From sequence record NC_041877.1: 64,000 bases of DNA; one strand, given 5' to 3'. The DNA is from Pseudomonas phage SM1. Both the position numbers and the translations under genes were made by a program. Below the pieces are notes generated by a model. That model made no database searches. It was given only the letters and a program-made list of their open reading frames with translations, and had not been told where the DNA came from. Below, in pieces: positions 2,962 to 59,660 of this stretch. The number at the start of each line of letters is the position of its first letter. The first letter of the stretch is position 1.

Positions 2962-2963
2962 TT

Positions 2964-15010: not shown

Positions 15011-16360
15011 ATGGAAGACACCATGGCACAGACCAAGCCCAAGACCGCCCCGGTCGTGGAACAGGCGGAACAAGAAATCGTAATCGGCAGCCGAGTCAAG
15101 TTCCTCGGCTACGACGAGCAGACCAAGGAAGAGGATCGTATCCTCGAAGACGGCGGCATCTACCTCGTGGTCGGCTTCGAGCCGGAGCAGGAAGGTGACG
15201 ACGATGAAACCCTGCCGGTCCTTCAGGCGCCGAACCCGGGCTTCAATCCGAAGAAGAAGAAGCACCCGGAAACCAACCCGGAATTCCTCGAAGTCGTCTG
15301 CTTCCCCGAGGAAGTAGAGCTTTCTGACGAGGCCGACGAGGCCGAGGAAGAAGCCGAGGAAGAAGAAGTCGAAGAGCAGCCGGAAAAACCGGCGCGCGGC
15401 GCCAAGGGTAAGGCCGCCGACAAGGGCAAAGCTGCCGACAAGGGCAAGGCGCCGGCCAAGGGCAAGGCTGCCGAAAAAGCGCCGGCCAAGGGCAAAGCAG
15501 TGGCCAAGCAGGTCGAAGAAGAGCCGGAAGACGCGGGCGACCCGGTACTGGCCGACGTTCCCGATCTGGAGCAGGAAGACCCGTCCGTTCTCGATCTGGT
15601 AAACGACAACGACGATCTGATCGCTGCCGTCCAGACCATGGAAAACGAGATCGCCACCACCGAGTTCCAGATCGGCGGCATGCTGTACCACATCAAGCGC
15701 GAAGTGCCCTGGCGTGACATGGACCCTGCCTACGCAGAGCAGGGCGGTTGGGGCAAGTTCGTCGAGGCCTACTTCAACCTCGGCGCGCGTAAAGCCACCC
15801 AACTGATCGCGATCTACGTTCAGTTCAACCAGGCCGGCATCGCCAACCCGTCGGAAGTCGTATCGACCCTCGGCTGGTCCAAGGCGGCCAAGCTGTGTGG
15901 CTACCTCAACGAGGAAGGCGTCGATGCCGGCGAACTGATCGAACTCGCAGGCGAGACCGCCACCAACGACCTGTCCACGGTCCTCAAGGAGACCTACCGC
16001 GAAGGCGGCACCGGCGGCACCCCGGGCGAGAAGAAGGTGCGGGTTAAGGTGAACCTGTCCTTCGAGCAGGAGAAGGGCGAGCTGGTTCAGGACATCATCT
16101 CGGAAGCCGTCTCCACCTTCGGCGCGGCCACCGAAGAAGAAGCTCTGTTCCAAGTTCTCGTCGAGTGGCGCGCCAGTAACACCGCCGGCGGCGCGGCTGT
16201 CGATGCCAAAGAGAGCGGCAAAGAGGTGGCAGAAAAAGCGGTAGCGGACGCCAAGGCCAAGCGCGCCGGCGCCAAGCCCGCTTCGAAGCCCGCCGCCAAA
16301 CCGGCAGCCAAGCCAGCGACCAAACCGGCGACCAAGCCGGCCAGCCGTGGCCGTAAATAA
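15011..16360 (+). CDS. hypothetical protein with acidic N-terminal region, KGKA repeats and C-terminal KPA repeats (histone-H1/AlgP-like low complexity)
   Basis: GKAADKGKAADKGKAPAKGKAAEKAPAKGKAVAK and AKPASKPAAKPAAKPATKPATKPAS; followed by a strong intrinsic terminator. Confidence 0.55.
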   Translation: MEDTMAQTKPKTAPVVEQAEQEIVIGSRVKFLGYDEQTKEEDRILEDGGIYLVVGFEPEQEGDDDETLPVLQAPNPGFNPKKKKHPETNPEFLEVVCFPEEVELSDEADEAEEEAEEEEVEEQPEKPARGAKGKAADKGKAADKGKAPAKGKAAEKAPAKGKAVAKQVEEEPEDAGDPVLADVPDLEQEDPSVLDLVNDNDDLIAAVQTMENEIATTEFQIGGMLYHIKREVPWRDMDPAYAEQGGWGKFVEAYFNLGARKATQLIAIYVQFNQAGIANPSEVVSTLGWSKAAKLCGYLNEEGVDAGELIELAGETATNDLSTVLKETYREGGTGGTPGEKKVRVKVNLSFEQEKGELVQDIISEAVSTFGAATEEEALFQVLVEWRASNTAGGAAVDAKESGKEVAEKAVADAKAKRAGAKPASKPAAKPAAKPATKPATKPASRGRK

Positions 16361-16433: not shown

Positions 16434-17144
16434 ATGGCTCTACAACGTAGCCGGCGCTCGGCGTCTTCGTCCAAAACCAACGCGAAGCCCCGACGTGCGG
16501 CTGAGCCCGTACGGATCAAAATCGACTATATCCCTATCGAGGAGATTGTCCCCTACGAGTTCAACGCCCGTAACAATGAGCAGGCCATCGAAGCGGTCAA
16601 AAAGTCTATTCAGCAATTTGGCTTTCTGAACCCGATTGTCCTCGACGAGAACAACGTGCTGGTCGCGGGCCATACGCGAACGGAAGCGGCCAAGCAACTA
16701 GGCTATATCGAGCTTCCGTTCGTAAGCGCAGCCCACCTTACTCCGGAGCAAGTACAGGCCTTCCGCCTCGTAGACAACAAAGTAGCTGAGATTGCTACAT
16801 GGGATGACGCACTCTTGGCGCAGGAAATGTATGCGATCAAGGAGATGTTTGATTTCACTGATTTCGGTTGGGACGCGGCAGAGATCGATTGCCTGGGCCA
16901 GCTTGTTTCTGACGATTGCCTACTCACTGCTGGTCTAGCTACGCCGGAGGAGGATGAAGAAGGTAGCGCCCGCCTTCCTGTGCGGCGTTCCCCGGCAACT
17001 GCGCGTATTGTGATCGGAGAGTTCGTCTTTTTCCGTCCGGCATCCTCAGTTCGCAATTTCCTCGACGGTCTGCGGCGTGCCCACAACGCCGACAGTGCGG
17101 CGATGGAAGAGGATATCGCTAACCGGCTTGGGCTACTGGATTAA
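16434..17144 (+). CDS. ParB-like nuclease-domain protein
   Basis: RBS GAGGAGAGAAAAC then ATG; IEEIVPYEFNARNN...NPIVLDENNVLVAGHTRTEAAKQLGY matches the ParB N-terminal (ParB/Srx) domain. Confidence 0.65.
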   Translation: MALQRSRRSASSSKTNAKPRRAAEPVRIKIDYIPIEEIVPYEFNARNNEQAIEAVKKSIQQFGFLNPIVLDENNVLVAGHTRTEAAKQLGYIELPFVSAAHLTPEQVQAFRLVDNKVAEIATWDDALLAQEMYAIKEMFDFTDFGWDAAEIDCLGQLVSDDCLLTAGLATPEEDEEGSARLPVRRSPATARIVIGEFVFFRPASSVRNFLDGLRRAHNADSAAMEEDIANRLGLLD

Positions 17145-17154
17145 GGAGCACCAA

Positions 17155-18711
17155 ATGGCACTTCGTCAGCGCCGCACCAGGGTGAGTGCAGCCGATAAAC
17201 TTACCTCGATTACTGTCGTCAATGTACCTACGGAGAACCACTCGCCCGACATCAAGAACCCGCGAAAGGCGGACCCTGCGCGTCTGGGCCTGCTTCGGTT
17301 GTCTATCGTCAAATTAGGGTTCCTGATGCCGATATTCGCGCGAGAACAGGACGGAACTTTGTTGTCTGGGCACCAGCGACAAAGGGTATGCCTGGAGGCG
17401 GGAATCCCCACCATGCCGACCGTGTACGTATCGCTCACGGAGCAGGAGATGATGGGTATCAACATACTCTTCAACCGCGTCACCAACGACTTCAGTGCTT
17501 TCGACACAGGCAGCACCGGAGTGGCCCGGATCAACATGAAACAAACACTGGAAGCGCTGGAGTCTTTGCCCGACTGTGACTTCAGTAACTTCTATGCAAA
17601 CGCTTGCAAAAACGAACCGATCAAAGTATTCGCGGCGGGTTGCGTAGACCAGTACGATAAAAAGGCCATTGTCACCGCCGGGGCGTTCGTTCGAATGGGG
17701 GTCAAAATCCCACTCGTAGTCAGTGAGTCTGGGGAGGTAGTAAATGGGGTCCACCGCCTATTCGCCGCTATTGAGAAGGGTTTGGATCAGTGGCCTGTAG
17801 TCCGTATCCCGGATCGCATCGCCGAGGTCGCTAAGATTGTTCTCAACTACCTGAGCATGGACTTCCACATCGACGAGGACTTCAAGGACCTTCTCCGTGG
17901 TGGTGCCTTCCGGCGAGTTTCAAATAACCGAGGTTTGGTGCCGAAGAGTTTTCGTTTCTGGGCCAATGGCGAACGATCTCTACTTGACAGGGATAGCTAC
18001 AGCACGGAGTTTTGGCTACGTTTCCGTGAGATACATGGTAACTCCATTCTCGATTTCGGAGCTGGGCTTTGCCGTGTAGCCCCCTACCTGCGGACCAAGG
18101 GATTCGAGGCAATGGATTTCGAGCCCTATCGCGTCGATCCCGTACTTAACGAAGCAGAGCCTAGCCCCGACTATAGCCGGTCCATGGCGAAGCAATTCCT
18201 GTCCGCTATCGCTGATCCTAGGCACAAATTCGATTCTATTTTTATGTCGGCAGTGATGAATTCGATTCCTTTCCCGGAGGATCGATTGAAGGTATTGGTT
18301 ATTGTGCATGCACTCTGTCGGCTGGATACTTCGGTTTACGGAACGTGCCGAGATATTTCCGATTTCTCCTACGAGTATGGCGGGGTAAGGAACGGTAACT
18401 ACTTCGTGATGGACGGAGAGCCGGGCATACGGTTGGGTGACATCAACTCTAGGCCTAAAATTCAGAAATTCATGACGCAGGACGAAGCTCGTAGCTACTT
18501 TGACCGCTTCTGGAACAAAGTCGAATTTTGGGAGGGTGGCAACGTTTTCTTCTTCCGTTTGTCTGCTCCCAAAGCACCGAATCTGAAAGCTCTGGGCCAG
18601 AGTTTGGATTTCGAATTTGGCGATCTGCCTTTTCTTGACGGCTCGCGTATGGGTTTAGCTAAAGAGGCTCGTGCGGCTTTCGCAAAGCGATTGGGGCGGG
18701 CGATTCCCTAG
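17155..18711 (+). CDS. ParB-like domain(s) fused to a class-I SAM-dependent methyltransferase domain
   Basis: AGGAG RBS then ATG 17155; ParB-like segments LSGHQRQRVCLEAGIPTMPTVYV and VVNGVHRLFAAIEKGLDQWPVV; MTase motif I ILDFGAGLCRVAPYL; no DPPY/NPPY motif seen. Confidence 0.6.
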   Translation: MALRQRRTRVSAADKLTSITVVNVPTENHSPDIKNPRKADPARLGLLRLSIVKLGFLMPIFAREQDGTLLSGHQRQRVCLEAGIPTMPTVYVSLTEQEMMGINILFNRVTNDFSAFDTGSTGVARINMKQTLEALESLPDCDFSNFYANACKNEPIKVFAAGCVDQYDKKAIVTAGAFVRMGVKIPLVVSESGEVVNGVHRLFAAIEKGLDQWPVVRIPDRIAEVAKIVLNYLSMDFHIDEDFKDLLRGGAFRRVSNNRGLVPKSFRFWANGERSLLDRDSYSTEFWLRFREIHGNSILDFGAGLCRVAPYLRTKGFEAMDFEPYRVDPVLNEAEPSPDYSRSMAKQFLSAIADPRHKFDSIFMSAVMNSIPFPEDRLKVLVIVHALCRLDTSVYGTCRDISDFSYEYGGVRNGNYFVMDGEPGIRLGDINSRPKIQKFMTQDEARSYFDRFWNKVEFWEGGNVFFFRLSAPKAPNLKALGQSLDFEFGDLPFLDGSRMGLAKEARAAFAKRLGRAIP

Positions 18712-18777: not shown

Positions 18778-19515
18778 ATGCTGACAAGAAAAGATGACAG
18801 GCCGGTGCATATGCCGGCCAACCCAGCTAAGTTTGAATTCGATGCCGAGGTGGCTGCTATTTTTCCGGACATGGCGTGCCGGTCCATACCGGATTTCCTG
18901 CGGGCTCACGACCTCCATGCGGAGTTATGCAGAGAGTTGTTCGAAGTTGGCCGTAACTCCGTAGCTGACCTGGGCGCCAGTCGCGGCCACTTCCTCGGGG
19001 CATTAAGTAGACGCTACGGTAAAGAGTTCCATGCTTACGCCTGCGACTATTCACTGCCAATGGTTGAGCATCTGCGCAAGGATTTTCCCTGGGCGGATGT
19101 GGAGCTGGTTGATCTGACCGCGCCCACTTTCTTCCATGATCGTCGTACGTATGACGTAGTTAATCTGTCGTACGTATTGCAATTCATCACTCCTGCAATG
19201 CAGCGCAGAGTGCTCGCCAAGGTGGTAGAAATGGTTAGGCCGGGTGGGTTGCTATTTATCGGGTCGAAATACGAGGTGCTTGGACAAGTAGGGGAAATGC
19301 TCCATCGTCAGTACATAGAGTGGAGAATGGAGCGTGGCTACTCTCGTGAGGAGATTGAAGCCAAGACCAAGGCACTAGCCGGAAGTATGTGGCCGCGCAC
19401 GCGTAATGCACTCCTCATCGACTTGAAGGATTTCGGTATGGAGAATATCTCTGATACTACCTACAACATGGTGTTCGGCAATATCGTGTGTCGTAAAGGC
19501 GGAGAACGAGAATGA
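18778..19515 (+). CDS. CmoA-like (carboxy-SAM synthase family) SAM-binding methyltransferase-fold protein
   Basis: N-terminus FDAEVAAIFPDMACRSIPDFL parallels CmoA [20 protein letters not shown]; motif I VADLGASRGHF; motif II-like YDVVNLSYVLQFI. Confidence 0.55.
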   Translation: MLTRKDDRPVHMPANPAKFEFDAEVAAIFPDMACRSIPDFLRAHDLHAELCRELFEVGRNSVADLGASRGHFLGALSRRYGKEFHAYACDYSLPMVEHLRKDFPWADVELVDLTAPTFFHDRRTYDVVNLSYVLQFITPAMQRRVLAKVVEMVRPGGLLFIGSKYEVLGQVGEMLHRQYIEWRMERGYSREEIEAKTKALAGSMWPRTRNALLIDLKDFGMENISDTTYNMVFGNIVCRKGGERE

Positions 19516-20354
19516 CAGATCGGACCGAAGATGGGCGTCGCCCAGTTGCGCGCCGCAATTTGCGCCGGGTGCGGGGTGGGGCACGCTTCGCCTCCAACTC
19601 TGGCAGTAGTAACTTGCGAACTCCACGAGATTTCGATGAGCAGGAGCACGATGACGTAGATGACGCCATTGATCCCCTCGCCGTACATCGCGGTGTAGTA
19701 TCCCGTGCTCGTGCAGATGATGCCGAGCCTGGGACGGATGTCTCTCCGGCTCAGCGGATGTTTGATGTGCAGCGAAATGCCCCAGCCAGTGTTTCACGGG
19801 AATACCGCCTGAATCTAGTTGGCCGGTTGTTGATGCGCAAGATTCCATTGGATCGGATCGCCCAACAACTGAACGTGTCTGTATCGACGGTAGAGAAAGA
19901 TAGGGCGGCCTGGAAAAAGATGCTAGCTGAACGGGCCCGCCAATTCGATGTGAACGAGTACATCGGCATTCAGTCGGAGTTCTACGACGAGGTGAGCGGT
20001 CAGGCAATGCAGATCGCCTCTATGGCAGCGGGTGAGAATGCCGTACCTACGGCCATGCGTTTGGCTGCGATGCGGACTGCGCTGGCTGGCCAAGCCGACA
20101 AGACTCGTACACTACAGTCTGCCGGCGTATTTGAGGCCGCGCGCTTCCGCCGAACTACGGACGGCTCTGCCATGAGCGATGTACAGATGCTTATGGCTCG
20201 GACTATGGAAGCTCTGGAAGACCTGATGCAGGCTGACGAGCCTCCACCTCCGCCGCCGCGCGGTGGGCCCCCGACAACCCGCCGACGTGACGGAAGCGGT
20301 TTCGACGATCTGACGTTGGATGACCCGGAGGAAGGGGAGGTTATGGAGCTATGA
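19512..20354 (+). CDS. putative terminase small subunit (HTH-containing); alternatively a sigma-region-4-like regulator
   Basis: Lies immediately upstream of and overlaps (ATGA) the large terminase; HTH-like LDRIAQQLNVSVSTVEKDRAAWKKM. Confidence 0.35.
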   Translation: MTDRTEDGRRPVARRNLRRVRGGARFASNSGSSNLRTPRDFDEQEHDDVDDAIDPLAVHRGVVSRARADDAEPGTDVSPAQRMFDVQRNAPASVSREYRLNLVGRLLMRKIPLDRIAQQLNVSVSTVEKDRAAWKKMLAERARQFDVNEYIGIQSEFYDEVSGQAMQIASMAAGENAVPTAMRLAAMRTALAGQADKTRTLQSAGVFEAARFRRTTDGSAMSDVQMLMARTMEALEDLMQADEPPPPPPRGGPPTTRRRDGSGFDDLTLDDPEEGEVMEL

Positions 20355-22282
20355 ACGTGAGTCCCATGAAGAAAACACGCCGTGTTCAAGCTTTTCTGCG
20401 CACCATAGAAAGCGTGTCGAAGGATATCGATAATGCGTTTTTTGGCCTGCTCTACCGTACGGCCATGGAGCGCATGGTCGATGGGGAGGCTACGCTGTTC
20501 GAGTTCCTTGGGCAGCTAGAGCATATGCCTGTGAGCATTGAAACCTTCCTCGACAGCGCGGAGTTCTTGGGCGCTACTGACTTGGTGATGTGGCCCGAGG
20601 TTCGAAAGGCAATCGTCGAGGAAAATCAGAACTGGTGGCGAGGCCTCGATACCGCTCCTGGCGCTCTCGGTGGGGCCTTTGATACGGCCTGCCTGATGGG
20701 TTGTACGCGTTCTGGTAAGTCTACCCAGGCCATCGTGGGGTTCATGTACCAGCTTCACATTCTGTTGTGTATGAAGAACCCGCAAGGCTGGTACGGGCTG
20801 CCCTCCGCTACCTCGATTGTCATGGCGATCATGGGCGCCAAACCTCATGTTACCAAGAAAGTGGTTTACGCGCCGATGAAGAAGTATATCGAGCGTATGC
20901 CATGGTTCCAGAAGTATGGAGTACCGGACAAGAATATCGACAGCGAAATGCTGTTCATCGAAAAGAACATTCGTGTTGTGCCGGTAGCGGGTAATGAAGA
21001 CGCGGTTCTCGGTGAAGCCTTGATCGCGTGTTTGATTGACGAGATCAACTTCATGAACGTGGTGCAGAAGTCCAAAAAGGCAGAAGTATCCACGGGGCGC
21101 TCTGGCGTATACGATCAGGCGCAAACGGTCTACGATACCGTGGTACGTCGTCGGCGTGGTACTTTCCCTAAACGGTACCCCCAGATCGGCATCATCTACG
21201 CCAGTTCGTCTACCCGGTACAAAGGTGATTTCACTGATAAGCTGAAGGCGGAGACCGAGAAGTTCAACCATAACAACGTCTACATTTTCAACAAGAAGCA
21301 GTACGAAGTTCAGCCCAAAGAAAACTTCTGCGGAGAGACGTTCCGTCTACTGATCGGCAATGATGTACAGCACGATACTCGTGTTCTAGGGCCGGACGAG
21401 GCGGTGCCGGAGGGGTCCTGGGTAGAGCTGGTGCCTATCGAATATTTGCCGGACTTCCAGCGTAAGCCCTATGACGCCATGCGAGACGTTCTTGGTATAT
21501 CCTCGAACGCGATCAGCCCGTTCATCAAAATGCGCTACCGGGTCTACGAGTGCGTTGAACTCGGCCACGAGAAGCGGTTGGAGTCGTTCCTTGAGAAAGA
21601 TCACGTCATTCTTGGCGTTGACGGTATGCCAAAAGTTCGACATGGGCACGTATGCACCAACCCGAGCAAGCCTCGGTACGTCCATATCGACCTGTCACGT
21701 ACTGGAGACCGCTGCGGTGTAGCGATGGTTCGCTTCGACGGGATGAGTAACTTTGAGCGGGCCGGGGACCAGTCAGAGCGGTTGCCGTTGGCTACGGTGG
21801 AGATGGCACTTTCCATCGAGCCAGATGCGAATAACGAGATTCAGATTGCAGAGGTGCGGTCCTGGGTTCGATCCCTTATTAAAGTGCATGGCTACCCGAT
21901 TAAAGGCGTTTCGTACGACGGCTTTGATAGCCGCGAGTCCATCCAGCAATGGCGTAAGGACCGCATGCCGTCCAAGGAGGTTTCGGTGGATCGTACCAGC
22001 GCGCCGTACAAGCAATTCCGCGATGCACTCTACGACAGGCGTGTAGCCCTTCTCGATGATCCCATCTTGCTGAATGAAATATTGGAGTTGGAGTACGACA
22101 CGCATAAGGACAAGATAGATCACCCGATGATGGGTAGTAAGGACGTATCCGATGCTGTATGCGGCGCGTATTGTAATATGCTGGAACGCCGAAGCACTTG
22201 GGCTGCCGTTCACGAGATCGATGGCGGTGATATGGCCGGCAGGTTCGAAGGCGAACGTTTTGACGATGATCGACGTTTTTAA
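20351..22282 (+). CDS. terminase large subunit
   Basis: 643 aa; Walker A GCTRSGKST; Walker B-like LIACLIDEINFM; C-terminal acidic nuclease-like region. Confidence 0.7.
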   Translation: MNVSPMKKTRRVQAFLRTIESVSKDIDNAFFGLLYRTAMERMVDGEATLFEFLGQLEHMPVSIETFLDSAEFLGATDLVMWPEVRKAIVEENQNWWRGLDTAPGALGGAFDTACLMGCTRSGKSTQAIVGFMYQLHILLCMKNPQGWYGLPSATSIVMAIMGAKPHVTKKVVYAPMKKYIERMPWFQKYGVPDKNIDSEMLFIEKNIRVVPVAGNEDAVLGEALIACLIDEINFMNVVQKSKKAEVSTGRSGVYDQAQTVYDTVVRRRRGTFPKRYPQIGIIYASSSTRYKGDFTDKLKAETEKFNHNNVYIFNKKQYEVQPKENFCGETFRLLIGNDVQHDTRVLGPDEAVPEGSWVELVPIEYLPDFQRKPYDAMRDVLGISSNAISPFIKMRYRVYECVELGHEKRLESFLEKDHVILGVDGMPKVRHGHVCTNPSKPRYVHIDLSRTGDRCGVAMVRFDGMSNFERAGDQSERLPLATVEMALSIEPDANNEIQIAEVRSWVRSLIKVHGYPIKGVSYDGFDSRESIQQWRKDRMPSKEVSVDRTSAPYKQFRDALYDRRVALLDDPILLNEILELEYDTHKDKIDHPMMGSKDVSDAVCGAYCNMLERRSTWAAVHEIDGGDMAGRFEGERFDDDRRF

Positions 22283-22306
22283 TGCAAGCGTTTGCACGGA
22301 GATACT

Positions 22307-22867
22307 ATGACCATTCTTTCCTATACCCGTCTTTGCGAAGTAGTGGACCGGGGCTATCTTAGTGGCCTTGAGGATCGGAGCCAGATAAACGCTGCAAGCA
22401 TAGACGTTCGTCTGGGTTGCACCTTTCTAGTAGAAGACGCACCTTTCGACGAGGACTATTTCACAGAACCTCCTTTGCTGAATGTAGATTTGGCGGCCAG
22501 GGAATCTGTGTGTTTCAGGGAACATAAGGGACGGATCAGGCTGGAGCCAATGGAATTTGTACTGGCCCATACTGTGGAGCAGTTTAACCTCCCGGACTGG
22601 TTATCCTGTGAATTCTCATTGAAGTCCTCCATCGCCAGGAATGGCTTGGAGCACCTCAACGCGTGTTGGGTGGATGCCGGGTTCAGTAGCTCGGTACTCA
22701 CCCTTGAACTGAAGAACATGACCCGTCATCATGCGCTGGTGCTAAGGCCCGGTATGCTGATCGGGCAGCTCAAGTTCTTCGAGCATGAACCGGTGCCGGA
22801 AGAGCAGAGCTATCGCAATCGCGGTCGCTACAACGGTGATGCTTCGGTGAGCACTATCAAACCGTGA
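22307..22867 (+). CDS. dcd: dCTP deaminase family protein (dUTPase superfamily)
   Basis: SIDVRLG, RSSIARNGLEHL...DAGFSSSVLTLELKN, LRPGMLIGQL align along the length of bacterial dCTP deaminase. Confidence 0.75.
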   Translation: MTILSYTRLCEVVDRGYLSGLEDRSQINAASIDVRLGCTFLVEDAPFDEDYFTEPPLLNVDLAARESVCFREHKGRIRLEPMEFVLAHTVEQFNLPDWLSCEFSLKSSIARNGLEHLNACWVDAGFSSSVLTLELKNMTRHHALVLRPGMLIGQLKFFEHEPVPEEQSYRNRGRYNGDASVSTIKP

Positions 22868-22882
22868 GCAAAGGAGTAACAC

Positions 22883-23698
22883 ATGGCTAAAGGTGAACAG
22901 GGCAAAGCTCGAAACGGTAGCCGTAAAAATCGCCGCGATGACGATGTGATGCGGGATGACTTCGAGGCCAGAATGGAGGGGCCCGTAAAGAAGTCTTGGA
23001 CATTGCATGATCTGGTACCGCTGGAGCCGGGTTCGGATAACCAGCGTGCGGCTATCGAGGCCTACTGCCAAGGTGACCATCTCGCCATGCTCGGCTCTGC
23101 CGGGGCGGGCAAGACTACCTTAGCGTGCTATCTGGCAGCAGGGTCTTTAGTGAGGAATGAGGTTGAGAAAATCATCCTTGTTCGTTCTGCCGTAGAGCAG
23201 CGAGAGCAGGGCTTCGTACCCGGTACCCAAGAAGAGAAAGATGCCAAATTCGAAGAGCCGTATGTCTCGGCCTTCGGCCACATCTTTGGCCACCCCACCA
23301 CTTACCAGTGGATGAAGCGGCGTGGATTGATCGAGTTCCGTACGACTGGCAATCTACGGAGTCTGAATTTCGATAATGCGGTAGTCGTGGGTGATGAAGT
23401 GCAGAATCTCAATTTCGAGGAGTTGCATACTTTCATAACCCGTCTAGGCCCTCGTTCTAGGTTGATCATGTGCGGAGACCAAGCGCAGTGCGACCTGAAG
23501 CGGTTCGAGATCAAAGGGCTGCCGATTTTCGAGGAGCTGGCAGGCGACTTGCCAAACCTCACAGTTGTGAAGTTCAGCAGACATGACTGCCTTCGTCATG
23601 GATTTGTCCGCGCATGGCTCGGTGCCGTCGAGGACTGGCACAAGCGTCGGGAGGAAACACGACCCGTAGCCGATATAACCACGAAGGTAGCCGGCTAG
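22883..23698 (+). CDS. PhoH-like P-loop ATPase
   Basis: AAGGAG RBS; Walker A MLGSAGAGKTTLA, Walker B VVVGDEVQNL, and GDQAQCDL (PhoH signature GD.xQ.D). Confidence 0.7.
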   Translation: MAKGEQGKARNGSRKNRRDDDVMRDDFEARMEGPVKKSWTLHDLVPLEPGSDNQRAAIEAYCQGDHLAMLGSAGAGKTTLACYLAAGSLVRNEVEKIILVRSAVEQREQGFVPGTQEEKDAKFEEPYVSAFGHIFGHPTTYQWMKRRGLIEFRTTGNLRSLNFDNAVVVGDEVQNLNFEELHTFITRLGPRSRLIMCGDQAQCDLKRFEIKGLPIFEELAGDLPNLTVVKFSRHDCLRHGFVRAWLGAVEDWHKRREETRPVADITTKVAG

Positions 23699-24081: not shown

Positions 24082-24109
24082 TTGACACTACTTTTCAAAA
24101 GAGTATTAT
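24082..24109 (+). promoter_or_regulatory. sigma70-like promoter (TTGACA-16-TATTAT)
   Basis: Consensus -35 TTGACA at 24082-24087, 16-nt spacer, -10 TATTAT at 24104-24109; reads into the ORF-free RNA region. Confidence 0.55.
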
Positions 24110-24122
24110 TGAGGGCGTAGAG

Positions 24123-24168
24123 CGGGCTCGGCGTTATTTTCACTACTTCCGTCGAGCCCGTTTTCTCC
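24123..24168 (+). terminator. terminator-like hairpin downstream of the promoter (possible short RNA or attenuator)
   Basis: CGGGCTCG ...22-nt loop... CGAGCCCG followed by TTTTCTCCCC. Confidence 0.4.
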
Positions 24169-24767
24169 CCATACGTGTGGGTCCTGGGTTCAACCTAGCT
24201 GGGCTGAATCAACCGCCTAGGGCTCACACGTATGGCGAGACCCGGTAGCACCGGGGTGATAAACGCAACACGCTACGAAACGTGAGGCTCCCATCCAATG
24301 GTGACATTGGCTAATATGGGGAGTAGGTGGCAGGGCGGAAAGCACGTTAGCGCTGACGTTAGGCACTCCAATTTTGGAATGCGTAGCACGGCCCTGGGAA
24401 GTAGGCACAATGCGCCCGCGCTCTAGTTGTAGCAACAGAGCGCCCACGCGACTAGGCACGTTTGCGTCAATCCCCTCCGAGCAGGTTAGTAGGAGGGTGA
24501 GGGCCTCTACCTCAAAACTCTGCGGATGCGCGCTGGTCGTTGCGGGGGTCGTCTAGAGGCTCTAAACTGTAGCTAGTCGGGGTAGCGTCCGACCGCCATA
24601 TTTGATCTGTTGTTACGGGGTGGCAGGTTGTTCAGGACCTGATGCTCTATGGCTACGTATCGTAGCCACGGCTGAAACACTGAACCGAGGGGCTGGAAGG
24701 GGCCCCTGCCAAACAAATGCAAGCGTTTGCACTCTACGTAGAACGGATCACGGGAGGCAAAACTTGG

Positions 24768-24839
24768 GGGGTGGTAGCTCAGGGGTAGAGCGAGCGTTTT
24801 CTAAACGCTTGGGCGTGGGTTCGAATCCCACTCACTCCA
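24768..24839 (+). tRNA. tRNA-Arg (anticodon TCT)
   Basis: Manual cloverleaf: acceptor GGGGTGG/TCACTCC, D arm GCTC-AGGGGTA-GAGC, anticodon arm AGCGT-TTTCTAA-ACGCT, T arm GTGGG-TTCGAAT-CCCAC, discriminator A; CCA not encoded. Confidence 0.8.
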
Positions 24840-24907
24840 TCTAGAAGTTTAGATGCCACGGAAGGCGTCTACCTAGAATTGCTGTAATCCCTTCAAAGGG
24901 GAAACGT

Positions 24908-24942
24908 GGCGGACGGGGGTTCGATTCCCCCCAGCTCCACCA
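24908..24942 (+). ncRNA. tmRNA (ssrA) 3'-end-like segment: T arm, acceptor 3' strand and encoded CCA
   Basis: GGCGGACGGGGGTTCGATTCCCCCCAGCTCCACCA closely resembles the 3' end of proteobacterial tmRNA (…GGACGCGGGTTCAACTCCCGCCAGCTCCACCA); no canonical tRNA 5' half could be paired upstream. Confidence 0.4.
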
Positions 24943-25266
24943 AAGACATTCTCGGCCAGCACGTTCGTTCCTAGGTGTGAGAAGGTGGCTGCGATACTGC
25001 CGGGTGGTTGCTAGGAACATCATTCGGAAAGTCCAGCTAGAGAGTGTCTCTGATGGGGCTGTTCAGGATTCGACGCCGCGCGTACTTAGCGAAGGCAGCA
25101 AGGAAAGGCGACGCACCTTGACGCGCGCAAATCGATAAACGCCAACGATACTTCGTTCGACGTTCGCCTCGCAGCCTAAACCCCTGCGGAGTGACGGGTA
25201 GCCTCCGGGCTTCCTCCCCCTGCTACGGCTAGTACCCGTAGTTGCCTTGGAACAGAAAGGGGAGGG

Positions 25267-25342
25267 CCTTCGCGTAGGCGCACTGACGGTCGGCACTCCA
25301 CCGCACGCCTGTCAGGGGGCTGTCAGTGCGCCTACGCGAAGG
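25267..25342. repeat. 21-bp perfect inverted repeat (CCTTCGCGTAGGCGCACTGAC / GTCAGTGCGCCTACGCGAAGG) with a 34-nt loop
   Basis: Exact reverse-complement arms at 25267-25287 and 25322-25342. Confidence 0.85.
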
Positions 25343-25665
25343 TAGCGATAGTGACCTTCGATCACAAGTGGATATTTCTGCTACGCAACGGGCAGTGCCC
25401 GTCACTCTGTCTAACCTTCGGGCGAGACTGGCAAGGCCACCACCGGCATAGCCGGCGCTGGAAACAGAAGGTGGCCAATTTCAGGAATCAGTGAGCTAGA
25501 GCCTGCGGGCCATGACTAGGGGACACACTTCAGTGTGGACGGTAATGCTCGCCGGGCGCCGCGCTAGCCTCTCTCGTCAAGAGGTACACCCCAGGGGGGT
25601 AACGTTGACCACCCCGCCGGCTCTAGCTCAGTGATCCCTACCCACACCAGACAGAGGATCGGAAA

Positions 25666-26493: not shown

Positions 26494-26542
26494 GCGATGG
26501 AATGGAAGTACGTACTCTGATTGAGAATGCCAACGACGAGAC

Positions 26543-26854
26543 ATGCCTATGACCGACCACGCAGAGTTGCGGAGGCTTGCTGAACAGGCTAGCTATTTCG
26601 ATATAACTACGGATTGGATGTTCAAGCCAGTTATAGCCTTTCAAAAAGCATCCGACCCCAAGATCGTCCTCGCCCTTCTGGACGAGATCGACAGGCTCAA
26701 GTCAGAAAACGATGCGCTGCGCAAGGATGCTGCGCGATACCGCGCATTGCGGCAGGAGGGTCGTGGAGTTGTAGTTGTACGAGACCGAGTATCTCATTTG
26801 TTCGAAAACAAGCTCGACGCTGCAATTGATGCAATCATAGAAGGAGATAAGTAG
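26543..26854 (+). CDS. hypothetical protein, Ea22/Ead-like coiled-coil N-terminal family
   Basis: PKIVLALLDEIDRLKSENDALRKDAARYRALRQ is typical of lambdoid Ea22-like N-terminal domains. Confidence 0.4.
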   Translation: MPMTDHAELRRLAEQASYFDITTDWMFKPVIAFQKASDPKIVLALLDEIDRLKSENDALRKDAARYRALRQEGRGVVVVRDRVSHLFENKLDAAIDAIIEGDK

Positions 26855-28863
26855 TGGCTGATCAAGAGAATACTCAACCTACCCAAAGGGAAGGGTTGTG
26901 TGGGCCTACGATAGTAGCCTATTTGCTCGTTAGACCGGATGGAAGCCTGTCGATGGATGCAGTCAGGCACAAGCCGAAACAACCCGCCGTTGCAGTTATG
27001 GCCGTAGATGAGCACGCTGCTAGTGTTGCCAGATGGGCAGAAATGTTCAATCGTGCTATTGAAGGGCATGGGCATGTTTTTCCGCGTGCGGATGGAGTAA
27101 AGATGCGGTGCGGCGGCCCTGGGCTCTGCTCGAAATGCACTGCCGACGCTTCTCTCGTCCATCCGTGCCCGGCACATCCTGCGGTAGAGCAGGCAGGCGG
27201 AGATGCGCGCAAACTGTCAGACCTCGGTAACGAATTGCACAACCTTTCGTGCTCGATCATTCACGAAAACGAGGAATGGGCTGAACAGATCGGCGGCATT
27301 GCCCGCGAGCTTTGGAATTGGCCACAAGCCCGCGCTGCCCTGGCGCACGACGAACAAGAACAGGCAGCACATGAACTCAGGCTGCTGGCAAACGCACTTG
27401 GCGAGTGCATTCAGGCGGCTGGCATTACTGCGCCCGGAGTGCCATTGACTGGGCCGCAGCTTCTCATGTTCGCCGAAGACCTGAAGCGCGATCTGCAACG
27501 CTCCTCCCTAGCGCAACCCTCCCCGAAGTGCGCGACCTGCAACGGCTCGAAAGTCGTTTCCACGACGGACACCGATCACAACGGCGACTACATCGAAGCG
27601 CCCTGTCCGAAGTGCTGCGGCACTGGCGAAGCAGATTCCGGTGGCGCCCACCCATGGGGAGAGCCGGTCTTGATCCCCTGTGACTGCGAGACAGAGCAGG
27701 CAGAGCCGGAACTGGAGCCGCATATACCTGCACAGAACATCGCTGAGGCCGCAATAGAGCAGTTGATTAAGTCTGGCGCCAAACACTATCAGGAATTCCA
27801 TTTCGACCTCCACCTTGATGGTCAGGAAGGGGCACGCCCTGTTGTCGTGACAGTAGCGTTTTCTGATGGGCCGTCTGCGCACGAACTACGCATGAAAGCA
27901 GAGCAAGAGCGCGACGCCGCTCTGGCCGAAGTCGAGCGCCTGAGTGAGTCAAAAGGTGACCCTGTTGGCAGCCTCGAAAAGTGCATGAAAGTGATGTACG
28001 AGCGCGACGAAAACGCTAAGCGGCTGGAAGCCGCCCTGGCCAGGGTGGCGGAGTTGGAAGGGAAGTTGACGGACTGGGTGCACGAAGGGTTCCGGCTCAA
28101 CGAGGCGCTAGCGGTCGCCAAGGCTCAGCACAGCGTGCCGGATGACGACATGATCTTGCAGATTTTTGCCGATAATGCTGAGCACTCGGAGCAAGGCGAC
28201 GAGCATGGTTACTGTATCGTGCGCGAACAGCATGCTCAAGCAATTGCGCGAAAACTGCTCGCCGCCGCGCCCGGCAACTCGGCTCAGCACAGCGTACCGG
28301 AGGGCTGGAAGCTGGTTCCGATTGAGCCGCTTCTCAACATGATGAGCGACAAGGACCACGACACCCGAATTACGGCTGAGCGCCAACTGCTTTCGATACT
28401 CGCCGACGCGCCCGCCCAGGCTCAGCACAGCGCGCCGGAAGTGTCAGGGATCGGACGCGACACTGGTCATCCGCGCGCGGTCGTTCTGTACCTACGCAAG
28501 GAGCCGACCGACGATGATCTGCGAGCCATCCATGATGCTCTGCGCTCTCTCGCCGCCGCGCCCGGCAAGGAAGTGCCACAGGCATGGCTCGACGTGCAGG
28601 CAGAGCGCCGCCGGCAGATCACCGCCGAGGGATGGACGCCGGAGCACGACGACCTCTATTGCGCCGCCGAACTTCCGCGCGCCGCAGCGGCATACATCCT
28701 CAACGGAGCCAATGACGAGGCGCCGGCTATCTGGCCGTTCTCGGCGAAGTGGTGGAAACCCCGCGACGCGCGTGCCAACTACGTGCGGGCAGCCGCCCTG
28801 ATCCTGGCCGAGATCGAGCGACTGGACCGCGCCGCGCCCGGTAAGGATGTAGGCCATGAGTAA
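26854..28863 (+). CDS. large hypothetical protein with a DnaJ-type CxxCxGxG zinc-finger-like motif and internal AQHSVP/AAPG repeats
   Basis: GTG start abutting the previous stop; CATCNGSKVV...CPKCCGTGE; three copies of GCTCAGCACAGCG(T)(G/A)CCGGA at about 150-bp spacing (28124, 28272, 28423). Confidence 0.5.
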   Translation: MADQENTQPTQREGLCGPTIVAYLLVRPDGSLSMDAVRHKPKQPAVAVMAVDEHAASVARWAEMFNRAIEGHGHVFPRADGVKMRCGGPGLCSKCTADASLVHPCPAHPAVEQAGGDARKLSDLGNELHNLSCSIIHENEEWAEQIGGIARELWNWPQARAALAHDEQEQAAHELRLLANALGECIQAAGITAPGVPLTGPQLLMFAEDLKRDLQRSSLAQPSPKCATCNGSKVVSTTDTDHNGDYIEAPCPKCCGTGEADSGGAHPWGEPVLIPCDCETEQAEPELEPHIPAQNIAEAAIEQLIKSGAKHYQEFHFDLHLDGQEGARPVVVTVAFSDGPSAHELRMKAEQERDAALAEVERLSESKGDPVGSLEKCMKVMYERDENAKRLEAALARVAELEGKLTDWVHEGFRLNEALAVAKAQHSVPDDDMILQIFADNAEHSEQGDEHGYCIVREQHAQAIARKLLAAAPGNSAQHSVPEGWKLVPIEPLLNMMSDKDHDTRITAERQLLSILADAPAQAQHSAPEVSGIGRDTGHPRAVVLYLRKEPTDDDLRAIHDALRSLAAAPGKEVPQAWLDVQAERRRQITAEGWTPEHDDLYCAAELPRAAAAYILNGANDEAPAIWPFSAKWWKPRDARANYVRAAALILAEIERLDRAAPGKDVGHE

Positions 28864-29179
28864 AGTGAAGCGATTCTACGCCCCTGGCCTGGATTGCCTT
28901 TACCGCAGCGATGCAGACGCACCCCGGCAACTGATTGCTCTGGTTCTGGGGTCGGATTACGACGCACTCGCCGCCAAGCTGGCCATGGCCGAGGACGCAG
29001 CAGCAAAGGGAGATGCTGCTCGCCAGCAATGCGGCGGAATGGGGATGGAGATCGAGGAACTTCGCGCTGAACTAGCGGAACTGCGCGCAAGGGTGGTGGT
29101 TTTGCCGGAGCCGTTGAACGAAGGCGATGCTCGACGAGAATGCGGGGGAGTACGGAGCGGCCATGCAGCGTGGATATAA
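28856..29179 (+). CDS. hypothetical protein
   Basis: ATG 28856 overlaps the upstream stop; 107-aa ORF. Confidence 0.4.
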   Translation: MSKVKRFYAPGLDCLYRSDADAPRQLIALVLGSDYDALAAKLAMAEDAAAKGDAARQQCGGMGMEIEELRAELAELRARVVVLPEPLNEGDARRECGGVRSGHAAWI

Positions 29180-29354
29180 CGCATGCCTGCGCGAACTGGC
29201 GCGCATCAACGGTATGACGGTCAGCGAAGGACTACTGCGACGTACTTTGGAGTTCGTCAAGGTTACCAATTGCAAGGGCTCTATCCCGCTCGGACTGATC
29301 GAAGAGTTGAGCGAGCTGCTCGGTGAGGTGAATGATGTCAGCCGTACTAAGTGA
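29163..29354 (+). CDS. hypothetical small protein
   Basis: GGAGCGGCC then ATG; 63 aa; overlaps neighbours at both ends. Confidence 0.3.
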   Translation: MQRGYNACLRELARINGMTVSEGLLRRTLEFVKVTNCKGSIPLGLIEELSELLGEVNDVSRTK

Positions 29355-58263: not shown

Positions 58264-58917
58264 ATGCAGATAGTAGGACTTACGGGTCTTCCTCGCAGCG
58301 GGAAAGACACTCTGGCCAATCTAATGGTGGCAAGGCATAGCTGGATTAGGATGGCCTACGCCGAGCCGCTGTACGAGGAGGTAGCGGAAGCCTTCGGGGT
58401 CACGGTGGTTCAGCTACTTAGCAACGAGTGGAAGACACAGCCTCAAGCGCGCTTGGTAATCGACCGCTGCACTGACAAGGAATTTTTCGATGTATTCGAA
58501 AAAGCCATGGATGGTGATTGTCTCTACCGGTACAACACCTCTCGAACCATTTTGCAGTTGTGGGGGACTGAGTACCGGCGCCTGTCTTGCCGCCAATCAT
58601 ACTGGACCGAGAAGATGGAGCAGCGCATCATGGAGGCCTATCACAACGGGCACTCAAGGATCGTCGTGTCAGATGTGCGGGTCTTTCTCGACGGGCAGGG
58701 CCAACCCGTTTACGATGAGTTTGAATGTCTGGATTCCTTGGCATTCGAGCTGGGAGGTTCTATGAAGTTGGTAGAAGTCCTCCGGGAGGGTACTACGAGT
58801 AACGGCCATAGCAGTGATTCGCGGTTCCCTGACCATCTGATATACGCCAAACTCAACAACAACCGGACGCCGGAAGAGTTATTCTTCCAGGCTGGAAAAA
58901 TGGGAATAGTCACATGA
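58264..58917 (+). CDS. dNMP-kinase-like P-loop nucleotide kinase
   Basis: MQIVGLTGLPRSGKDTLANLM parallels the T4 gp1 dNMP kinase N-terminus (MKLIFLSGVKRSGKDTTADFI). Confidence 0.6.
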   Translation: MQIVGLTGLPRSGKDTLANLMVARHSWIRMAYAEPLYEEVAEAFGVTVVQLLSNEWKTQPQARLVIDRCTDKEFFDVFEKAMDGDCLYRYNTSRTILQLWGTEYRRLSCRQSYWTEKMEQRIMEAYHNGHSRIVVSDVRVFLDGQGQPVYDEFECLDSLAFELGGSMKLVEVLREGTTSNGHSSDSRFPDHLIYAKLNNNRTPEELFFQAGKMGIVT

Positions 58918-59660
58918 CCATTGCAAAAGATAGCAACGCCGACGCCGCGTTTTCTCAAATGTTTCCCAAGGGTTTGGACATGTGCGAGCTGGATGCGCGC
59001 ATGCACCAGCTTTTTGGCAACCGCGAAGGCAATAAGTTCTCCCCGAGCTGGGCCGACCTACAGCGGTATACTGACATTCTGAAATCCGAAGTTGAGGAAC
59101 TGGAGAAAGGAGTAAACGAGCAGGATTTCGTCGAAGTTCTCGATGGCCTTGGTGATATTCTGACCGTTCTCCACGGCTTGGCCAACTTGGCTGGCGTCGA
59201 TATTCGAGAAGTATGGATGCGGGTGTTCGAGTCCAATCTCACTAAATTCTGCCGTAACGCCGGTGAGATGGAGGCCACCTTGGAAAAATATAAAAACCAG
59301 GGCGTATCAGTAGAGGCGGGCGGCGTATTCCCCTTTGCCTACGTCACAACTTCGGAAGCTCAGGTAGTAAACGGGCGTCAGGTGCCGAAGGGCAAGTTTC
59401 TCAAGTGCGTACGCTTCACGGAGCCGGATTTTTCGGACCTCTTATCAAGTGAGTACAAAGGCACCCGTAGCCTTGTAGGTATGTTGGATAGTTTCGATGT
59501 ACCGCTACAGCACCGGCTTCGGAGTATGCTGACGGGAGCCAAACCACGACAGGCCTCCGAGCGTATCCTTCTACAGCTCGAAAGCCAAGGTATGCTGAGC
59601 CCTGTAAGCCAGCCGTCGAACGCGAAGCCGACCCCCAGGGTCCGAGATATCCTGAGATAG
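58914..59660 (+). CDS. MazG-like nucleotide pyrophosphohydrolase
   Basis: LKSEVEELEKG...EVLDGLGDILTVLHGLA matches the MazG EExxE / E..D..GD metal-binding helices. Confidence 0.6.
   Translation: MTIAKDSNADAAFSQMFPKGLDMCELDARMHQLFGNREGNKFSPSWADLQRYTDILKSEVEELEKGVNEQDFVEVLDGLGDILTVLHGLANLAGVDIREVWMRVFESNLTKFCRNAGEMEATLEKYKNQGVSVEAGGVFPFAYVTTSEAQVVNGRQVPKGKFLKCVRFTEPDFSDLLSSEYKGTRSLVGMLDSFDVPLQHRLRSMLTGAKPRQASERILLQLESQGMLSPVSQPSNAKPTPRVRDILR

Follow-up and report, generated by a model that had tools for sequence, protein, structure and literature searches.

What is a dCTP deaminase (Dcd) gene doing directly after the large terminase gene of a Pseudomonas phage, and does its presence there say anything about the bases of the phage's DNA? 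The window, by which we mean the whole stretch of 64,000 nucleotides analysed here, comes from a Pseudomonas aeruginosa siphophage of the genus Samunavirus (PaMx31/FBPa45/UF_RH6), whose genome is about 93 kb long and has a GC content of 55% (0.551 as computed); that of the host is about 66%. The phage genus recurs in P. aeruginosa phage panels and in the phage-therapy literature. The Dcd protein is 98.9–100% identical in ten sequenced Samunavirus records, and in every annotated deposit of the genus its gene is unannotated or misannotated, being called “hypothetical protein,” “minor tail protein” or “DNA replication protein.” Also unannotated is a two-piece tmRNA at 24828–25219. A literature search on the DNA chemistry of Samunavirus and PaMx31 yielded only a genome announcement, and two host-range/defence papers on the genus are silent on DNA modification. 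An earlier note, made from the letters of the window, had seen in the Dcd gene a “re-routed pyrimidine pool,” with a hint of dU-, hmdU- or hypermodified-dT DNA. The reading reached here, to which we give a probability of roughly 80%, is that of a competent Dcd engaged in an ordinary dCTP→dUTP→dUMP→dTMP→dTDP supply, in a phage whose DNA, methylation aside, should be canonical according to this reading.

The Dcd gene and its neighbors

The genes and signals around the Dcd gene are as follows:

20351..22282, plus strand: large terminase subunit (TerL), 643 aa; weak matches to PHROG terminase-large-subunit families (E 5.6e-10, 2.5e-6 and 9.6e-6)
22298..22301, plus strand: Shine-Dalgarno sequence GGAG, read from the sequence, with a 5-nt spacer to the ATG at 22307
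22307..22867, plus strand: dCTP deaminase (Dcd), 186 aa, ATG start, trimeric dUTPase-superfamily fold
22883..23698, plus strand: PhoH-like ATPase (Pfam PhoH, E 2.2e-37), the conserved downstream neighbor of Dcd

The ATG at 22307 is preferred over an in-frame TTG at 22292 because of the Shine-Dalgarno sequence at 22298–22301. The resulting ORF contains both the AASIDVRLG and the LRPGMLIGQL motifs, and since it has strong family support, two minus-strand ORFs lying over it (22456–22719 and 22742–23080) were rejected as spurious.

The placement of Dcd directly after the large terminase, as the earlier note had it, is borne out by the PHROG terminase matches and by the TerL stop at 22282, which leaves a gap of 24 nt. 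The 643-aa protein has no Pfam match; its orthologues in related phages are 71–84% identical and include some with intein-like insertions (1024 and 955 aa, with a faint LAGLIDADG match in L008), a kind of insertion that is frequent in large terminases. Downstream, only 15 nt separate Dcd from PhoH. No terminator-like site occurs on the plus strand between 20759 and 25700, hence none from the end of TerL to PhoH, and this, together with the short gaps, fits co-transcription of TerL, Dcd and PhoH. The adjacency of Dcd and PhoH is kept in five related loci (L003, L005, L008, L009 and L016), while in L007 a GIY-YIG gene intervenes.

Family and fold of the protein

The first proposal, of a Dcd homologue of full length, is confirmed at several levels. 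The protein scores above threshold against the Pfam family DCD (PF22769, E 1e-24, 87.8 bits for a cutoff of 27) and matches PHROG 1663, “dCTP deaminase,” with an E-value of 5.9e-48; against the NCBIfam equivalog TIGR02274 it reaches 87.7 bits, 5 bits under the cutoff of 92.8. Among solved structures, its best matches by sequence are the M. tuberculosis Dcd:dut (2qxx, E 7.6e-14) and E. coli Dcd (1xs1, E 4e-10). An AlphaFold2 model was obtained with a mean pLDDT of 89.3 and a pTM of 0.83, the last ~20 residues falling to pLDDT 53–63. When this model was searched against the PDB with Foldseek, the best 25 matches were all Dcd or DCD-DUT enzymes (TM 0.67–0.80, E down to 7.6e-14), with a TM of about 0.8 to 2qxx/4a6a and of 0.78 to E. 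coli 2v9x. As modeled, 22307–22867 encodes an intact Dcd, with a predicted dUTPase-like beta-barrel subunit fold and a Dcd-type C-terminal arrangement.

Catalytic residues and type of reaction

The active site was compared in an alignment of 29 sequences, made up of 26 from the phage clade plus E. coli Dcd, M. tuberculosis Dcd:dut and M. jannaschii DCD-DUT, these three references having been checked residue for residue against the PDB. Ser107, Arg111, Ala119, Asp123 and Glu134 of the window Dcd are invariant throughout, as are the equivalents of E. coli Ser111, Arg115, Ala124, Asp128, Glu138, Tyr171 and Tyr179, and His116 is the conserved equivalent of E. coli His121. The residues of metal-independent deamination (Ser111/Arg115/Glu138 in E. 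coli numbering) are thus all kept. In the E. coli enzyme, Arg115 and Glu138 are said to be needed specifically for deamination, reportedly from the 2005 mutagenesis of Johansson et al., and Ser111 is also counted among the residues needed for it. Relative to E. coli Dcd, the nucleotide site shows some changes: Thr123 is replaced by Asn, Lys178 is Arg, and Gln182 becomes Asp in most of the phage clade. Around the nucleobase hairpin, the clade differs from cellular Dcds by a one-residue deletion and a one-residue insertion. Taken as a whole, the conserved residues point to a catalytically competent dCTP deaminase.

Could the protein be a dUTPase in a Dcd fold, of the type found in archaea (P45, Thermococcus, Sulfolobus), making dUMP from dUTP only and so sanitizing the pool with no deamination? 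Such enzymes are indeed retrieved with the window Dcd, both by sequence (9ln0, 8y1w and 2yzj, E 1e-8 to 2e-3) and by fold (8y1w, 2zdc and 9ln0), and deamination cannot be proved from sequence alone. Nevertheless, the equivalents of Arg115, Glu138 and Ser111 are invariant in the phage clade, full-length Dcd and DCD-DUT structures outscore the dUTPases, and the relatives already have a separate dUTPase, which makes a protein confined to dUTP hydrolysis quite unlikely.

For a deaminating enzyme there remains the choice between a monofunctional Dcd and a bifunctional dCTP deaminase-dUTPase. No sequence rule separating the two is given in PMC4827122. The best matches by sequence and by structure are bifunctional enzymes; since a gene of the dUTP-pyrophosphatase type is retained separately in the lineage, the window Dcd may lean slightly toward the monofunctional side.

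A deoxynucleotide kinase and a MazG-like pyrophosphohydrolase

Two further genes of nucleotide metabolism had been pointed out far downstream in the window, a dNMP-kinase-like P-loop kinase at 58264 and a MazG-like pyrophosphohydrolase at 58914, and both proved to be real:

58264..58917, plus strand: T4 gp1-like deoxynucleoside monophosphate kinase, 217 aa (phrog_139, E 3.1e-34; PDB 1dek, T4 gp1, E 2e-4)
58914..59660, plus strand: MazG/PRA-PH-type nucleoside triphosphate pyrophosphohydrolase, 248 aa (Pfam PRA-PH, E 2.2e-7; MazG, E 2e-4)

The kinase match begins at residue 73 of a longer ORF, which is position 58264 of the window. With the portal protein as an anchor for locating the corresponding loci, kinase orthologues 40–52% identical were found at the corresponding place in every relative examined. 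The MazG-like protein also matches phrog_671 (E 1e-25) and phrog_2144 (E 1.3e-21), and has homologues 41–45% identical in the near clade (L014, L015 and L017). In the more distant relatives L011–L013, loci on three of the same contigs that bear a ThyA gene before Dcd (see below), its slot is occupied by a dimeric dUTPase (dUTPase_2, PF08761); there the kinase orthologue (E 3e-52, 40% identity) comes first, then the dUTPase, and shortly after it the portal gene. This common position is all that the two proteins share, since neither BLASTP nor hhalign gave any signal of homology between them. We infer that dUTP is the predicted substrate of the MazG-like protein, which would make it a dUTP pyrophosphatase. 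A search for its homologues in an index of 5.8 billion proteins returned only the protein itself, and queries of IMG/VR with either the MazG-like protein or the kinase returned no related loci.

Thymidylate synthase: absent here, canonical in the relatives

The window had been described as free of any thymidylate-synthase-like gene, and this holds for the entire genome. Pfam scans covered the window ORFs of at least 200 aa (bar two that were read by eye and a further, likely spurious ORF on the minus strand) and the non-structural ORFs of the rest of the genome, and gave no match to Thymidylat_synt or ThyX. Likewise, tblastn with four ThyA and one ThyX sequences against the window and positions 1–50000 of FBPa45, which together make up the whole genome, gave a best E-value of 0.039. 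Across its whole genome the phage is without a ThyA, a ThyX or a recognizable dUTPase of its own.

Of six related loci from metagenomic phages, five have a canonical ThyA gene adjoining the Dcd orthologue on its upstream side, the order being TerL-(small ORF)-ThyA-(DNA ligase)-Dcd-PhoH in the five loci that keep Dcd beside PhoH. These ThyA proteins score 227–247 bits against TIGR03284, whose cutoff is 108, and are 43–45% identical to E. coli ThyA; they keep R21, E58, W80, Y94, C146, H147, R166, S167, D169, N177, H207 and Y209, as well as the C-terminal MAV. Among annotated phage proteins, those nearest to them are the thymidylate synthases of ~110–120-kb Escherichia and Salmonella siphophages, mostly adjoining DHFR. 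The possibility that the relatives' ThyA proteins are dUMP hydroxymethylases was rejected on the identity to E. coli ThyA, the conserved catalytic residues and C-terminus, and these nearest homologues.

Two loci of the near clade, L008 and L016 (TerL 82–84% identical), still have ThyA, and L008 comes from the same sample as L015, one of the loci with a MazG-like gene; ThyA and the MazG-like gene probably occur together in one near-clade genome. The metagenomic relatives of this clade derive from samples SRR27946904, SRR27947074 and SRR27946832. ThyA appears to have been lost in Samunavirus, which would now depend on the host enzyme. The relatives have ThyA, DNA ligase, ribonucleotide reductase (RNR) and dUTPase, all absent here, and the MazG-like gene occupies the dUTPase slot, an example of auxiliary metabolic genes being gained and lost as modules. 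This comparative gene-content result opens no new question.

Does the gene set point to modified DNA?

The Dcd/kinase/NTP-pyrophosphatase trio reads as an ordinary dTTP-supply module, because the relatives pair orthologues of its members with ThyA and with a dimeric dUTPase. The idea of a re-routed pyrimidine pool stands in the mundane sense that channeling dCTP to the dU/dT branch is what defines a Dcd, but not as a sign of modified DNA. The hint of dU-, hmdU- or hypermodified-dT DNA found no support, the relatives' Dcd lying beside a ThyA of the methylating type and their kinase beside a dUTPase. None of the enzymes named alongside that hint was encountered, be it a dUMP hydroxymethylase, a glycosyltransferase or an aGPT-Pplase (tblastn of the whole genome, Pfam scans of the examined ORFs). 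Scans with Pfam, PHROG and NCBIfam also gave no 5-hmdU DNA kinase, aGPT-Pplase or glycosyltransferase, several large ORFs matching no family, and the only P-loop kinase found is the gp1-type enzyme, orthologous to that of the ThyA-encoding relatives. Most likely, then, nothing about the Dcd speaks for unusual bases in the DNA.

A phage with dU in its DNA is nonetheless worth considering. In such a phage, Dcd would make dUTP, the MazG-like enzyme would destroy dTTP (or be directed at dTMP), and the kinase would serve as dUMP kinase, dU replacing part or all of dT after the loss of ThyA and dUTPase. Samunavirus does lack ThyA, ThyX and dUTPase_2, unlike its relatives, and dUTP is no more than a putative substrate of its MazG-like enzyme; moreover, known dU-DNA phages combine a Dcd with dT-nucleotide hydrolases from varied families, and PBS2 likewise induces a dUMP kinase (PMC12697855). 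The Dcds of the three characterized dU-DNA phages, however, have the zinc cytidine-deaminase fold and not the dUTPase-like fold of the window Dcd. Both Dcd and kinase are orthologous to genes that lie beside canonical ThyA and dUTPase in the relatives, and the MazG-like variant belongs to the near clade, in which L008 and L016 keep ThyA. Pfam scans of the examined ORFs gave neither a dT hydrolase of the HAM1, HD or 5′-nucleotidase type nor any dTMP phosphatase or dTTP pyrophosphatase of families PF06941, PF12917 and PF01725. No Ugi-like or dUTPase-inhibitor function was identifiable either, such inhibitors having no reliable sequence signature. All this makes dU-DNA very improbable; were it true, a fourth pathway to dU-DNA would have arisen independently, and for the first time from a Dcd of the dUTPase fold, in a P. 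aeruginosa phage genus of the phage-therapy literature.

A mainly non-metabolic role, such as signaling or anti-defence moonlighting, has been reported for some staphylococcal phage dUTPases, so that phage proteins of the dUTPase fold offer precedents; here it can hardly be credited, given the strictly conserved Dcd catalytic residues and the consistent linkage of the relatives' Dcd to the nucleotide-metabolism genes ThyA, ligase, RNR small subunit and PhoH.

For hmdU or hypermodified thymidine, the polymerase calls for a closer look. It carries an N-terminal domain of the UDG superfamily (Pfam, E 4.7e-8), in which motif A reads TDLPS instead of GE[AG]PG and the His of motif B is replaced by Ser; against TIGR00758 the domain reaches 52.8 bits for a cutoff of 125.3. 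Active UDG-polymerase fusions of the SPO1/SP15 type have been linked to T-modified phages, while the N4 type is inactive (bioRxiv 10.1101/2025.03.26.645540). From its motifs, the domain looks inactive and seems to resemble the N4 type rather than the SPO1/SP15 type, and on account of these degenerate catalytic motifs the fusion with PolA was set aside as an indicator that the phage has T-modified DNA. Besides a kinase and a homologue of thymidylate synthase, the T-modification pathway employs a dCTP deaminase and a dUTP pyrophosphatase (bioRxiv 10.1101/2025.03.26.645540). A phage whose Dcd feeds dUMP to a hydroxymethylase, whose kinase handles hmdUMP and whose MazG-like enzyme clears dTTP could be pictured from this pathway and from the polymerase architecture, which is common to SPO1 and SP15-like T-modified phages, but this has next to no chance of being right, and is already close to refutation by gene content: the essential Thy-like hydroxymethylase is missing from the whole genome, the relatives' Thy is a canonical ThyA, Pfam searches gave no aGPT-Pplase or glycosyltransferase family, the sole P-loop kinase is a gp1-type dNMP kinase, and the UDG motifs match the inactive fusion.

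A proposed role in thymidine supply

In the ordinary supply pathway that we favor, Dcd would deaminate dCTP to dUTP during infection or, if bifunctional, yield dUMP and PPi directly. The phage MazG-like pyrophosphohydrolase, host Dut or both would hydrolyse dUTP to dUMP, and host ThyA would methylate dUMP to dTMP, the phage lineage having apparently lost the ThyA of its relatives. The phage gp1-like dNMP kinase would then phosphorylate dTMP, and host Ndk would turn dTDP into dTTP. The downstream steps are assigned to the host or to the MazG-like enzyme because the phage has no ThyA, ThyX or recognizable dUTPase. The net effect would be a shift of the pyrimidine dNTP pool from dC to dT, suiting a phage of 55% GC in a host of ~66% GC, and such GC balancing may be the rationale for carrying a Dcd.

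With its annotation corrected, Samunavirus gains a small and coherent nucleotide-metabolism set, namely Dcd, dNMP kinase and NTP pyrophosphohydrolase. This set probably makes the phage dependent on host ThyA, and predicts sensitivity to thyA status and antifolates, as well as a shift from dC to dT in the pool during infection.

Comparison with known systems

Monofunctional E. coli Dcd (1XS1) shares with the window Dcd its fold (TM 0.77–0.78), about 33% identity, and the residues Ser111, Arg115, Glu138, Asp128, His121, Ala124, Tyr171 and Tyr179, and the expected reaction would be the same, dCTP→dUTP feeding thymidylate synthesis. In addition to the Thr123→Asn and Gln182→Asp exchanges, the phage-encoded protein has a shorter C-terminal tail, a one-residue deletion after the GL of S-S-x-A-R-x-G-L and a one-residue insertion before the strand of the catalytic Glu. 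The bifunctional M. tuberculosis Dcd:dut (2QXX/2QLP) is closer, being the best match both by sequence (E 7.6e-14) and by structure (TM 0.80), with about 38% identity, a common DxGF motif and a common Lys before Ser-Ser. A bifunctional enzyme would make the separate gene of dUTP-pyrophosphatase type in the phage lineage less necessary, although M. tuberculosis also has both.

Among annotated phage proteins, the closest homologues are the Dcds of Kuravirus, the phiEco32-like coliphages (e.g., Paul gp075), with 43% identity over 99% of the length, in a genome region that also holds a thymidylate synthase (ThyX) and PhoH. Kuravirus belongs to another phage family with another host, and encodes its own thymidylate synthase where the window phage has none. 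The dU-DNA phages PBS1, DSS3_VP1 and PhiR1-37 resemble the window phage in a nominal phage dCTP→dUTP reaction combined with nucleotide hydrolases. Their Dcds, however, have the metal-dependent cytidine/dCMP-deaminase fold and are paired with dTMP/dTTP hydrolases of PF06941, PF12917 and PF01725 (PMC12697855); the fold of the window Dcd is unrelated, and those hydrolases were not found here. Finally, unlike T4, the window phage has neither a hydroxymethylase nor a glucosyltransferase, but its gp1-like dNMP kinase adjoining an all-alpha NTP pyrophosphohydrolase recalls precursor gene sets of the T4/T5 type, which comprise the gp1 dNMP kinase, a dNTP pyrophosphatase and thymidylate synthase. The relatives add ThyA, the RNR small subunit and DNA ligase, whereas the set in Samunavirus is reduced to Dcd, the kinase and the MazG-like enzyme.

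The dCTP deaminase gene and its product

The earlier note had taken one ORF for a dCTP deaminase (Dcd) lying directly after the large terminase, and both points were borne out:

22307-22867 (+), Dcd gene

This ORF is real and is the gene described there. A GGAG ribosome-binding site precedes its ATG by 5 nt, the preceding gene stops at 22282 and PhoH begins at 22883, with no + strand terminator-like site found between the TerL, Dcd and PhoH genes. The 643-aa protein encoded upstream is a divergent large terminase (TerL), with PHROG matches only. The Dcd protein matches Pfam DCD (E 1e-24), PHROG 1663 “dCTP deaminase” (E 5.9e-48) and solved Dcd/DCD-DUT structures (2qxx, 7.6e-14; 1xs1, 4e-10), and scores 5 bits below the NCBIfam Dcd equivalog cutoff. 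Its AlphaFold2 model, built from 33 homologues, is confident (pLDDT 89.3) and best resembles the M. tuberculosis, E. coli, B. halodurans and M. jannaschii enzymes (TM 0.7-0.8).

E. coli, M. tuberculosis and M. jannaschii reference sequences, which agree residue for residue with the PDB, were aligned with 26 phage-clade sequences. The equivalents of Ser111, Arg115, Ala124, Asp128, Glu138, Tyr171 and Tyr179 (E. coli numbering) are invariant, while that of His121 is kept in the window Dcd and most aligned members. Mutation of Arg115 or Glu138 reportedly abolishes deamination in E. coli Dcd, in work by Johansson et al. from 2005. Features particular to the phage clade are Thr123→Asn, Gln182→Asp, a single deletion, a single insertion and a tail of reduced length. 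Nothing in the sequence suggests lost activity, and no feature separating a dUTP-releasing from a dUMP-releasing enzyme was found in Dcd. The phage gene is a genuine but ordinary dCTP deaminase; it is a new addition to a known family and has been mis-annotated until now.

Ten Pseudomonas aeruginosa phage records of 85-95 kb, including PaMx31, vB_PaeS_FBPa45, UF_RH6, PA_L9 and the BHU phages, match the segment 20351-23698 at 98.4-99.6% identity; FBPa45 is assigned to the genus Samunavirus. In GenBank, the Dcd orthologues (OQ383211, OL343755, OL473897, OL622073, PP869205, ON857939) are labelled “minor tail protein” (UF_RH6, BHU phages), “DNA replication protein” (PA_L9) or “hypothetical protein” (FBPa45), and TerL and PhoH are named “tail length tape-measure protein” and similar. 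The labels of all three genes look shifted or wrong.

Gene order in related phages

Comparison with relatives supplies the decisive evidence. In metagenomic contigs, many measuring 95-105 kb, homologues of 45-79% identity abound. In five of six related loci the order is ParB, ParB-methyltransferase, CmoA-like methyltransferase, small terminase, TerL, (small ORF), thymidylate synthase (ThyA), (DNA ligase), Dcd and PhoH, sometimes followed by an RNR small subunit or RNase H. The one exception is L007, whose Dcd is the nearest to that of the window (79% identity): like the window, it has no ThyA. TerL identity is 82-84% for a near clade (L007, L008, L016) but 71-72% for a far one (L003, L005, L009), and because ThyA occurs in both, its absence from Samunavirus is most simply a loss. 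The relatives' ThyA is canonical: it exceeds the TIGR03284 cutoff twofold, shares 43-45% identity with the E. coli enzyme and keeps both the catalytic residues and the C-terminus. Among annotated phage proteins, those closest to it are thymidylate synthases from Escherichia/Salmonella siphophages of ~110-120 kb, their genes mostly adjoining DHFR.

Mobile elements litter the relatives' Dcd and kinase modules: intein-like insertions in TerL of 1024 and 955 aa (L008:5929-9003, with a faint LAGLIDADG match, and L016:1614-4481), a GIY-YIG gene between Dcd and PhoH (L007:8958-9452), an HNH gene adjoining the MazG-like gene (L017:4115-4576) and a NUMOD4 protein (L013:1046-1582). In the window as in relatives, TerL (20351-22282) stands ~38 kb from the portal (60069-61736)/protease/capsid module, the terminase genes being embedded between DNA-methyltransferase and nucleotide-metabolism genes.

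Kinase, pyrophosphohydrolase and the proposed nucleotide route

The predicted dNMP kinase, T4 gp1-like and starting at 58264, and the MazG/PRA-PH-like gene after it were recovered as described. With the portal protein as anchor, the kinase regions of relatives were reached. In each of the three far-clade contigs shown above to have ThyA, an orthologous kinase (40% identity, E 3e-52) precedes a PF08761 dimeric dUTPase of 287-292 aa, after which come a small ORF and the portal. The slot between kinase and portal is occupied as follows:

58914-59660 (+), window, MazG-like protein, ~250 aa
L011:5651-6520, far clade, PF08761 dimeric dUTPase
L012:5647-6525, far clade, PF08761 dimeric dUTPase
L013:5680-6543, far clade, PF08761 dimeric dUTPase

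Near-clade loci L014, L015 and L017 likewise have a ~250-aa MazG-like protein here, and these proteins, the window's included, are 41-45% identical among themselves. No similarity to the PF08761 dUTPase is detectable in their sequences; the position is constant, but one gene has been replaced there by a non-orthologous one. We infer that the MazG-like protein replaces the dUTPase functionally, as another all-alpha NTP pyrophosphohydrolase that would act on dUTP.

The auxiliary enzymes of the lineage (Dcd, dUTP pyrophosphatase, ThyA and dNMP kinase, some members adding RNR and ligase) together spell the ordinary dCTP→dUTP→dUMP→dTMP→dTDP route. What Samunavirus retains is Dcd, the kinase and one pyrophosphohydrolase; ThyA, ThyX, dUTPase_2, ligase, RNR and RNase H are absent in any frame, in keeping with the earlier report of no thymidylate synthase, and host ThyA presumably serves instead. 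Genome GC is 0.551 and host GC ~66%, and Dcd most probably raises the dTTP supply of a phage 11 GC points below its host.

Other features of the window

The most notable side finding is a permuted tmRNA:

24768-24839, tRNA-Arg(tct), adjoining the tmRNA
24828-25219 (Rfam) or 24850-25270 (ARAGORN) (+), two-piece (permuted) tmRNA

It matches Rfam beta_tmRNA (111.2 bits, gathering 84, E 1.8e-34) and tmRNA_permuted (118.6 bits, gathering 47, E 5.4e-24), and ARAGORN independently predicts a permuted tmRNA carrying the tag ANDTSFDVRLAA; FBPa45 is annotated without it. A betaproteobacterial-type two-piece tmRNA is odd in a phage of a gammaproteobacterium. Phage-encoded two-piece tmRNAs are discussed in one article for a marine methylophage (PMC9004378). 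A near-consensus sigma-70 promoter at 24082-24109 (+) (TTGACA-16 nt-TATTAT, 11/12 matches) heads the ORF-poor stretch of ~1.5 kb (~24100-25650) that holds both RNAs and no convincing ORF.

Further upstream lie:

15023-16360 (+), 445-aa histone H1/AlgP-like protein
16434-17144 and 17077-18711, genes grouped with the next
18778-19515 (+), CmoA-like (carboxy-SAM synthase-like) class I methyltransferase

The 445-aa protein is highly acidic in the middle and bears Lys/Ala/Pro-rich repeats (KGKAADKGKA..., KPAAKPAAKPATKP) at either end; its gene is flanked by those of a RuvC-like resolvase (14314-14928) and a ParB-like protein. In FBPa45, two further genes that lie elsewhere, FBPa45_0003 and _0026, are labelled alginate regulators. 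The CmoA-like protein best matches CmoA/YecO in the PDB (E 2e-16) and phrog_4752 (E 8e-65), and reaches 91.7 bits against TIGR00740, under the cutoff of 193. The block of ParB_N protein, ParB_N-methyltransferase fusion, CmoA-like protein, small terminase and TerL recurs in every relative whose locus extends there. Past ~26 kb frames break and FBPa45 gene calls fail to transfer (window ~26500-30400 against FBPa45 76600-80300), the window having instead a 669-aa ORF (26854-28863) without family match; the region varies among phages that are 99% identical apart from it.

Possible DNA modification

From these genes a re-routed pyrimidine pool had been proposed and modified DNA hinted at; the gene observation stands, the interpretation only in a trivial sense. 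Gene content leaves a single modified-DNA reading, a dU-DNA phage, which we regard as very improbable. Known dU-DNA phages do combine a Dcd with a dT-nucleotide hydrolase of diverse families (PMC12697855), but their Dcds differ in fold from that of the window, whose Dcd and kinase are orthologues of genes beside ThyA and dUTPase. Moreover, near-clade ThyA loci (L008, L016) and near-clade MazG-like loci share sample series, L015 and L008 coming from the same run. Modification based on hmdU requires a Thy-like hydroxymethylase, and none was found in the window or in the rest of the genome (the window covers about two-thirds of ~93 kb, the remaining third being taken from FBPa45, where it holds structural, lysis and a few other genes).

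One further gene might have pointed to T-modified DNA:

2952-5870 (+), family A DNA polymerase with N-terminal family-4 UDG-like domain

T-modified phages include some with SPO1-like/SP15-like fusions whose UDG domain is active (bioRxiv 10.1101/2025.03.26.645540). This pointer is countered by degenerate motifs A and B: TDLPS replaces GE[AG]PG in motif A and the motif B His is Ser, several Cys being kept. With such motifs the window polymerase resembles the N4-type inactive UDG-PolA class of the same study.
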